From the NCBI GenBank assembly GCA_951406725.2, contig OX597833.1:66278001-66342000 (forward strand): a stretch of DNA of 64,000 nucleotides, in the 5' to 3' direction. The translations under genes were made by a program, and so were the position numbers. Positions 34,202 to 34,408 of the stretch are shown here, in pieces (the first letter of the stretch is position 1; each line of letters begins with the position of its first letter). The notes beneath the pieces were generated by a model, which was not told the DNA's origin, made no database searches, and saw only the letters and a list, made by a program, of their open reading frames with translations. The DNA is from Octopus vulgaris. Taxonomy: Eukaryota.

Positions 34202-34408
34202 AGATGCAGCACGAAGTTTTGTCAGTGAACAGGTCGCGGTCTCAAAGCGACGAAAATATTTTGACAAATTAAATTTAAATGTTGAAGTGAATCGAACGGT
34301 TTTTCTGTGTTTCTTAAATGGCTTATAAACACCTTCCACGCTGCAATTGTTTTCGCTCCAGCACACGATCTCAGATCAGGTCACTTGCTATGCAAGTACA
34401 TCTCCGTA
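34202..34408 (+). mobile_element. ~207-bp element with HHR-like fold and 8-bp TSD
   Basis: AGTTTTGG at 34194-34201 and 34409-34416; interrupts the transposase reading; second copy at 43361-43562. Confidence 0.8.

Follow-up and report, generated by a model that had tools for sequence, protein, structure and literature searches.

The 207-bp unit at positions 34202 to 34408 (plus strand) of the window, the stretch of 64,000 nucleotides of Octopus vulgaris DNA analysed here, consists of the leader and the first 30 codons of an autonomous Penelope-like retrotransposon, and does not constitute a separate element. We consider it probable that such units are copies made by the element's own reverse transcriptase (RT), from an internal start to the 5′ end of the RNA, and that they carry a minimal hammerhead with a natural G-C swap of the 3-8 pair, for which weak cleavage is predicted. 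The kind of retrotransposon is known; what is new is the natural G3-C8 core of its putative hammerhead.

The 207-bp unit and its parent element

The unit is bounded by two copies of the 8-bp target-site duplication AGTTTTGG (34194 to 34201 on the left and 34409 to 34416 on the right). Its insertion target, which lies outside the element, is a decayed Tc1/mariner-type transposase remnant on the minus strand at 33763 to 34700, with homology resuming at 34979-35589. Two relatives can be aligned with both flanks and lack the insert, and the same two match a Pfam DDE_3 transposase (E 2.7e-10 and 4.7e-8). With both duplications present and insert-free relatives aligning across them, the proposal made from the letters alone (hereafter the sequence-only reading) of a mobile unit that interrupts a transposase with an 8-bp duplication is confirmed. 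We also noted that a segment of this remnant, about 80 bp long, occurs twice (34617-34700 and 34976-35055), on either side of another inserted repeat at roughly 34700-34978. A second copy of the unit, 93% identical, occupies 43361 to 43561 on the plus strand; its hammerhead, at 43370-43421, shares the core but differs in loop II, just as had been described. Fragments of the unit also form a degraded inverted pair at 51146 to 51277.

Longer copies carry, upstream of the unit, a shared sequence (386 exact matches), a microsatellite-rich UTR of about 970 nt and an ORF that ends in a GIY-YIG domain. The order ORF, UTR of about 970 nt, unit was found in all eight loci chosen for long ORFs, every one of which has GTGAACA (G3-C8). 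At one locus (L106/L226) unit, ORF and unit follow one another as pseudo-LTR direct repeats, with the ORF start inside the repeat. In the window the ATG of this RT-endonuclease ORF lies within the unit at 34318, and its first 30 codons (MAYKHLPRC...) extend over 34318 to 34408 on the plus strand; in L224, L226 and L227 the frame runs on past the unit for 102-200 aa. The N-terminus of this ORF is 35% identical to that of a sister family's ORF (E 3e-35).

A GIY-YIG domain was detected in L087 at 28.4 bits against a Pfam cut-off of 22.6, and the same model missed two long ORFs, in L103 and L110. Searches with Pfam and PDB profiles detected no RT (0 matches in PDB), and the motifs that we take to be those of an RT were recognised by eye in the A1 alignment. 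A single ORF with an RT (by eye) plus a GIY-YIG at the C-terminus, an ORF start within the repeat, and inverted 5′-truncated copies with a tail at one end are features of EN+ Penelope-like elements. Before the endonuclease the alignment has a CX3CX2C linker, CQSNCAVC. A CX2-5CxxC linker is a mark of Neptune/Nematis elements (PMC8557442), to which the octopus linker conforms, and on this part of the sequence the element is of Neptune/Nematis type. The order of ORF and UTR, the ORF start and the distribution of copy ends together identify 34202 to 34408 as a solo leader, that is, a pseudo-LTR end, of such an element. Its loop-II type is also found on ORF-linked copies, and this copy therefore represents the same autonomous element, in an older subfamily. 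The sequence-only reading, which had a small non-autonomous retroelement, was thus right as to the retroelement and wrong as to its autonomy, and the autonomous Penelope sharing the sequence that it proposed to look for is present in the form of ORF-linked copies. A direct repeat at L061 was considered as a full element and rejected as a larger duplication. At L069:1927-4365, a different Penelope/Poseidon-like RT-GIY-YIG frame lies beside a copy of the element.

The genome searched comprised 2.8 Gb in 227 contigs, in which a 23-mer from the unit had 6,499 exact matches and its reversed control none, placing at least 6,499 copies or half-copies of the unit genome-wide. Flanking duplications of at least 7 bp were found at 26 of 94 units, some of them within TA repeats. 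The copy number and target-site duplications that had been proposed as checks were both found in this way. One alternative is a MITE with short terminal inverted repeats and a hammerhead shape that arose by chance, for which a 5-bp AGATG/CATCT complement near the ends, a modest folding z-score and the lack of an Rfam match may be cited. The inverted ends GGAGATG and CATCTCC described earlier do not withstand comparison, however, as the left GG is part of the duplication, hence target DNA, and is missing from most other copies, and CATCTCC stops 3 nt inside the element, where it codes for V-H-L-R. The unit has neither terminal inverted repeats nor fixed ends; 5′ truncation and inversion vary from copy to copy, and duplications vary from 7 to 14 bp. 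The linkage of the unit to an RT-GIY-YIG ORF refutes the MITE reading, the chance of which we put at practically nil.

The hammerhead motif and the 3-8 pair

The motif at 34218 to 34268 (plus strand), which has homologues in sister families, follows the minimal type-I layout. It comprises a stem I of 7 bp (34218-24/34262-68), the variant core GUGAACA with an extra G (34225 to 34232, where G3 is 34225, C8 is 34230 and the extra G is 34232), a stem II of 5 bp (34233-37/34247-51), and GAAA from 34252 within GAAAATATTT (34252-61), at the end of which U34261 is H17 and precedes the predicted cut (UUU triplet). A15.1-U16.1 and G10.1-C11.1 are present as well, while the core GUGAACA departs from the literal CUGANGA consensus. 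The hammerhead topology put forward earlier is sound in stems I and II, the GTGAACA core, GAAA and H17, but not in its 10-nt palindromic stem III: only the 6-nt AATATT is free, because the remaining bases are A13, A14 and U17. This palindrome (AAUAUU, 34255 to 34260) would serve as an intermolecular helix III in a dimer, with a self-duplex of just -0.2 kcal/mol. The predicted structure contains both stem I and stem II, with a z of only -1.7, and G3 can pair with U17, which lengthens stem I in the ground state. A search of the unit alone with Rfam gave no hammerhead at E≤10 and four weak non-hammerhead matches; over 33800-44000, the 150 of 303 matches listed were exclusively microsatellite-driven microRNA matches. 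The expectation that standard motif searches would overlook the variant holds for the Rfam models, which give no hammerhead match. Contigs of four sequencing runs span the unit and, among the variants listed, have GTGAACA in their loose-end consensus; such contigs are uninformative on starts, cuts and splicing.

The active hammerhead fold is defined by its tertiary contact between positions 3 and 8. In this family the wild type is G3-C8, which is present in 95 of the first 100 of 4,731 matches of a pattern search and in 73 of 82 sampled arms, so that the consensus keeps the pairing on which the sequence-only reading relied. It persists among ORF lineages that are 82-99% identical, and subfamilies differ in loop II (0.72 majority) and before stem I, not in the core (0.97).

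A sister family, with a protein 56% identical to that of the element, has a C3-G8 motif with the same extra G at the homologous place upstream of the ATG. Relative to the unit, the sister motif has a G-C to A-U change in stem II and an A-U to G-C change at 15.2-16.2, both as covariation. A pattern of the shared scaffold that excluded G3 and C8 gave 1,084 matches (control, 2), and C3-G8 was counted by eye in 76 of the first 100 of them. U3·G8 was seen in 11 of the same first 100, several with distinct loops, and is possibly a further family. When the collected loci were scanned with positions 3 and 8 left free, ten other motif types were obtained, eight of which are Watson-Crick at 3-8 (five C3-G8 and three U3-A8), the other two being an artefact from the unit's own inverted arm and a likely chance match. 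The 3-8 pair thus covaries as a Watson-Crick pair: G3-C8 here, C3-G8 in families with the same scaffold and U3-A8 in others. At least seven further minimal hammerhead types, C3-G8 or U3-A8, lie in flanking DNA (L010:2600, L051:2638, L123:526, L148:2382, L061:1357 and 5396, L029:2644, L112:7845).

Within the family, double changes at 3 and 8 were found in 13 matches (none C3-G8, six A3-U8) and are explained by transitions. As a point against the swap between families, a Watson-Crick outcome would arise anyway with a 1-in-3 chance once two changes are given. A metagenome scan returned two short contigs with no useful flanks. On these comparisons the homology of the motif to Penelope hammerheads is firm. 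Since C3-G8 hammerheads homologous to it occupy the same place in sister families, G3-C8 is to be read as a derived, natural compensatory swap, which upholds the corresponding claim of the sequence-only reading.

Copy ends, a proposed copying route and the question of cleavage

Copy ends were determined in the first 100 listed matches of an internal 23-mer, which yielded 85 loci and 132 arms. The 3′ ends lie at unit 199-207 in 75 arms, at 144-153 in 50 and elsewhere in seven, and 61 arms have 5′ ends at unit 1-4, about eight of which continue upstream. The 3′ ends favoured by the copies, at unit ~149-151 and 207, are 33 and 91 nt into the ORF and enclose a 'tail' at 34350 to 34408 (plus strand); copies of the sister family end at the homologous two positions. 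Head-to-head pairs numbered 39: a long arm is joined to a short one in 34 of them and five include one unclassified arm, with no long+long or short+short pair, an excess that has a probability of about 1e-11 if pairing is random. Judging from these DNA ends, 34202 is likely to be the transcription start and the 3′ ends at unit ~150 and 207 are likely to be two internal starts of reverse transcription. The 207-bp unit would be cDNA from the distal RT start to the RNA 5′ end, and such strict pairing of long with short arms points to one event with a single start site on each target strand.

The upstream CTAAC...TTTCTCAG (386 exact matches) resembles a 3′ splice site. In full elements a branch-point/polypyrimidine-like stretch upstream of the unit (L063:5712-5733) has its AG at the unit's first bases and may double as an acceptor. 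As an explanation of the 5′ boundary we prefer a start site to a splice acceptor, because copies retain the AG, which splicing would remove. We also considered whether a cap had contributed an additional G at the 5′ end: a G precedes the start in 18 of 37 non-extended starts against a background of 18%, and many of these are explained by the duplication or by the inverted arm.

We propose that a promoter in the repeat would start the RNA at A34202, Penelope being known to have an internal promoter (PMC2377424). The RT-GIY-YIG protein would nick the two strands of the target, with a few to ~14 bp between the nicks, and cDNA would be primed at two internal sites, one per strand, such that a single arm would give a solo copy, as at 34202-34408, and two arms a head-to-head pair. 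The template would be mostly uncleaved RNA. To cut after U34261, the ribozyme would have to dimerise or be assisted by the element's protein, and cutting might modulate or process tandem and read-through transcripts without being needed per insertion.

A different origin would be a separate non-autonomous SINE or retrozyme, transcribed from dispersed copies and mobilised in trans. Short copies do exceed ORF-bearing ones by orders of magnitude, one tandem array of units exists (L229), and animal retrozymes have been proposed as derived from such repeats (bioRxiv 2026.07.22.740005). Yet each loop-II subfamily examined was also found attached to the UTR or ORF, starts are not at the cut site, and solo copies have lost the bases upstream of the start site. 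The 85 sampled loci hold solo or inverted copies rather than the tandem non-coding monomers of a retrozyme. We regard this origin as quite improbable, and as compared with it prefer that of an autonomous element's leader, from whose solo copies some secondary amplification may occur. The array, outside the sample at L229:1686-3026, contains about eight copies of unit 3-149 with TA runs between them, a retrozyme-like layout that would permit dimer cleavage.

The hammerhead is predicted to self-cleave only weakly, and several results suggest that not every round of transposition depends on cleavage. Against essential cleavage, a single arm of the 132 has a 5′ end within unit 59-63, where the cut product would begin. 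A sub-lineage with G3·G8, equal to a single mutant that is inactive, has made independent insertions, as seen from differing ends and flanks; it has 147 matches. In a tree of 25 rows with ORF ends aligned over >500 nt, three G3·G8 copies are nested among G3-C8 copies, with the base unresolved; this nesting makes secondary loss more parsimonious than a captured evolutionary intermediate, a reading of G3·G8 that we rejected. The G3·G8 loci L246, L247 and L250 have their own loop II, and 33 of the first 100 of the 147 matches lie on contig C16 as a local burst. In the main sister subfamily, A9C (CUGAUGC) was found in 92 of the first 100 of 3,456 matches, A9 copies also existing, and this A9C subfamily (L110-L118, e.g. 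L110:7385-7432) has intact 1,312-codon frames. The extra base is G here and H in the published consensus (PMC4209133), the G3-U17 pairing resembles an inactive 3-17 pairing treated in PMC3884650, and helix III of the dimer is marginal.

These features raise the alternative that the element is as described but its hammerhead is a relic without catalytic activity, whose fold or sequence has been retained to serve promoter function, translation or protein binding. Copies at the cut site are not in excess, lineages with G3·G8 and with A9C have been amplified, G3-U17 pairing, the extra G and a weak helix III are all unfavourable to cutting, and in the anole element insertion in vitro was unaffected by ribozyme mutants (PMC11167929). 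In contrast, the other core positions and G10.1-C11.1 are all conserved between families that have diverged in stem I, loop II and the spacer; the 3-8 pair is Watson-Crick in three forms across families; and an engineered swap was partly active (PMC11167929). We consider a dead relic unlikely, though a serious contender: it fits much of the cut-related evidence, and weak, conditional activity fits all of it. A stronger version of the preferred reading would have an active natural G3-C8 hammerhead, wild type throughout a lineage of thousands of copies, as a class of ribozyme unseen by CUGANGA searches, and would attribute the strict pairing of long with short arms to a protein dimer that is asymmetric and, in one event, uses a pair of fixed sites on the same uncleaved RNA to prime the two target strands. 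We advance this version tentatively, rating it somewhat below an even chance.

Significance and relation to known systems

High-copy wild-type G3-C8 together with C3-G8, A9C and G3·G8 relatives in one genome constitutes a ready allelic series, which bears on whether Penelope hammerheads must cut at all. The reported lack of hammerheads in some Penelope clades may partly be descriptor bias. The copy-end statistics trace, for a second clade, where RT initiates internally in vivo, and the copying model predicts that each event yields a long arm and a short arm.

In the papers covered by our literature search, neither a natural G3-C8 hammerhead nor the present element was found. Passages of PMC6765202, PMC10085705, PMC7229834, PMC11014351 (by term search) and bioRxiv 2026.07.22.740005 contained no relevant G3-C8 case. 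Engineered forms of the G-C swap have been described (PMC11167929, PMC3884650), and U3-A8 hammerheads are known in nature (PMC3088659, PMC4209133).

Minimal type-I hammerheads in the pseudo-LTRs of metazoan Penelope-like elements were described by Cervera & de la Peña in 2014 (PMC4209133), where an extra nucleotide and a short palindromic stem III are the norm and activity in vitro is low and occurs as dimers. The octopus motif resembles these in its position in the repeat, the extra nucleotide between 9 and 10.1, G10.1-C11.1, the palindromic 15.2-16.2 plus loop 3, the mostly solo dispersed copies and the predicted activity as a dimer. It differs from them in having G3-C8 rather than C3-G8 or U3-A8, G rather than H as the extra base, and a 7-bp stem I.

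In PAc, the Poseidon element of Anolis carolinensis studied by Frangieh et al. in 2024 (PMC11167929), the C3G/G8C double mutant restores cleavage in part, the ribozyme depends on the protein and uncleaved RNA is the template. Its RT starts at two sites inside the start of the ORF, the interval between them being the genomic tail, and both target strands are cut and extended. The octopus element likewise has two 3′ ends within the ORF start that define a tail, and AT-rich targets, and its proposed template is also uncleaved RNA. In contrast to PAc, where the swap is artificial and the ATG lies inside the ribozyme, the swap is wild type here and the ATG lies 57 nt downstream of the predicted cut site; the tail is about 57 nt and the Zn-finger linker is of Neptune/Nematis type.

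Like the unit, non-LTR retrozymes (PMC7229834) are short repeats of animal genomes that carry a type-I hammerhead, but they are tandem, with canonical hammerheads and no ORF, whereas the unit belongs to a coding element and occurs solo or inverted. In protein and copy structure the element agrees with the EN+ Neptune/Nematis elements of Craig et al. 2021 (PMC8557442), which have the same C-terminal GIY-YIG, CX2-5CxxC linker and (TA)n bias, and inverted 5′-truncated copies with a tail at one end only; the 'cuganga' descriptor of that study would miss the GUGAACA core.
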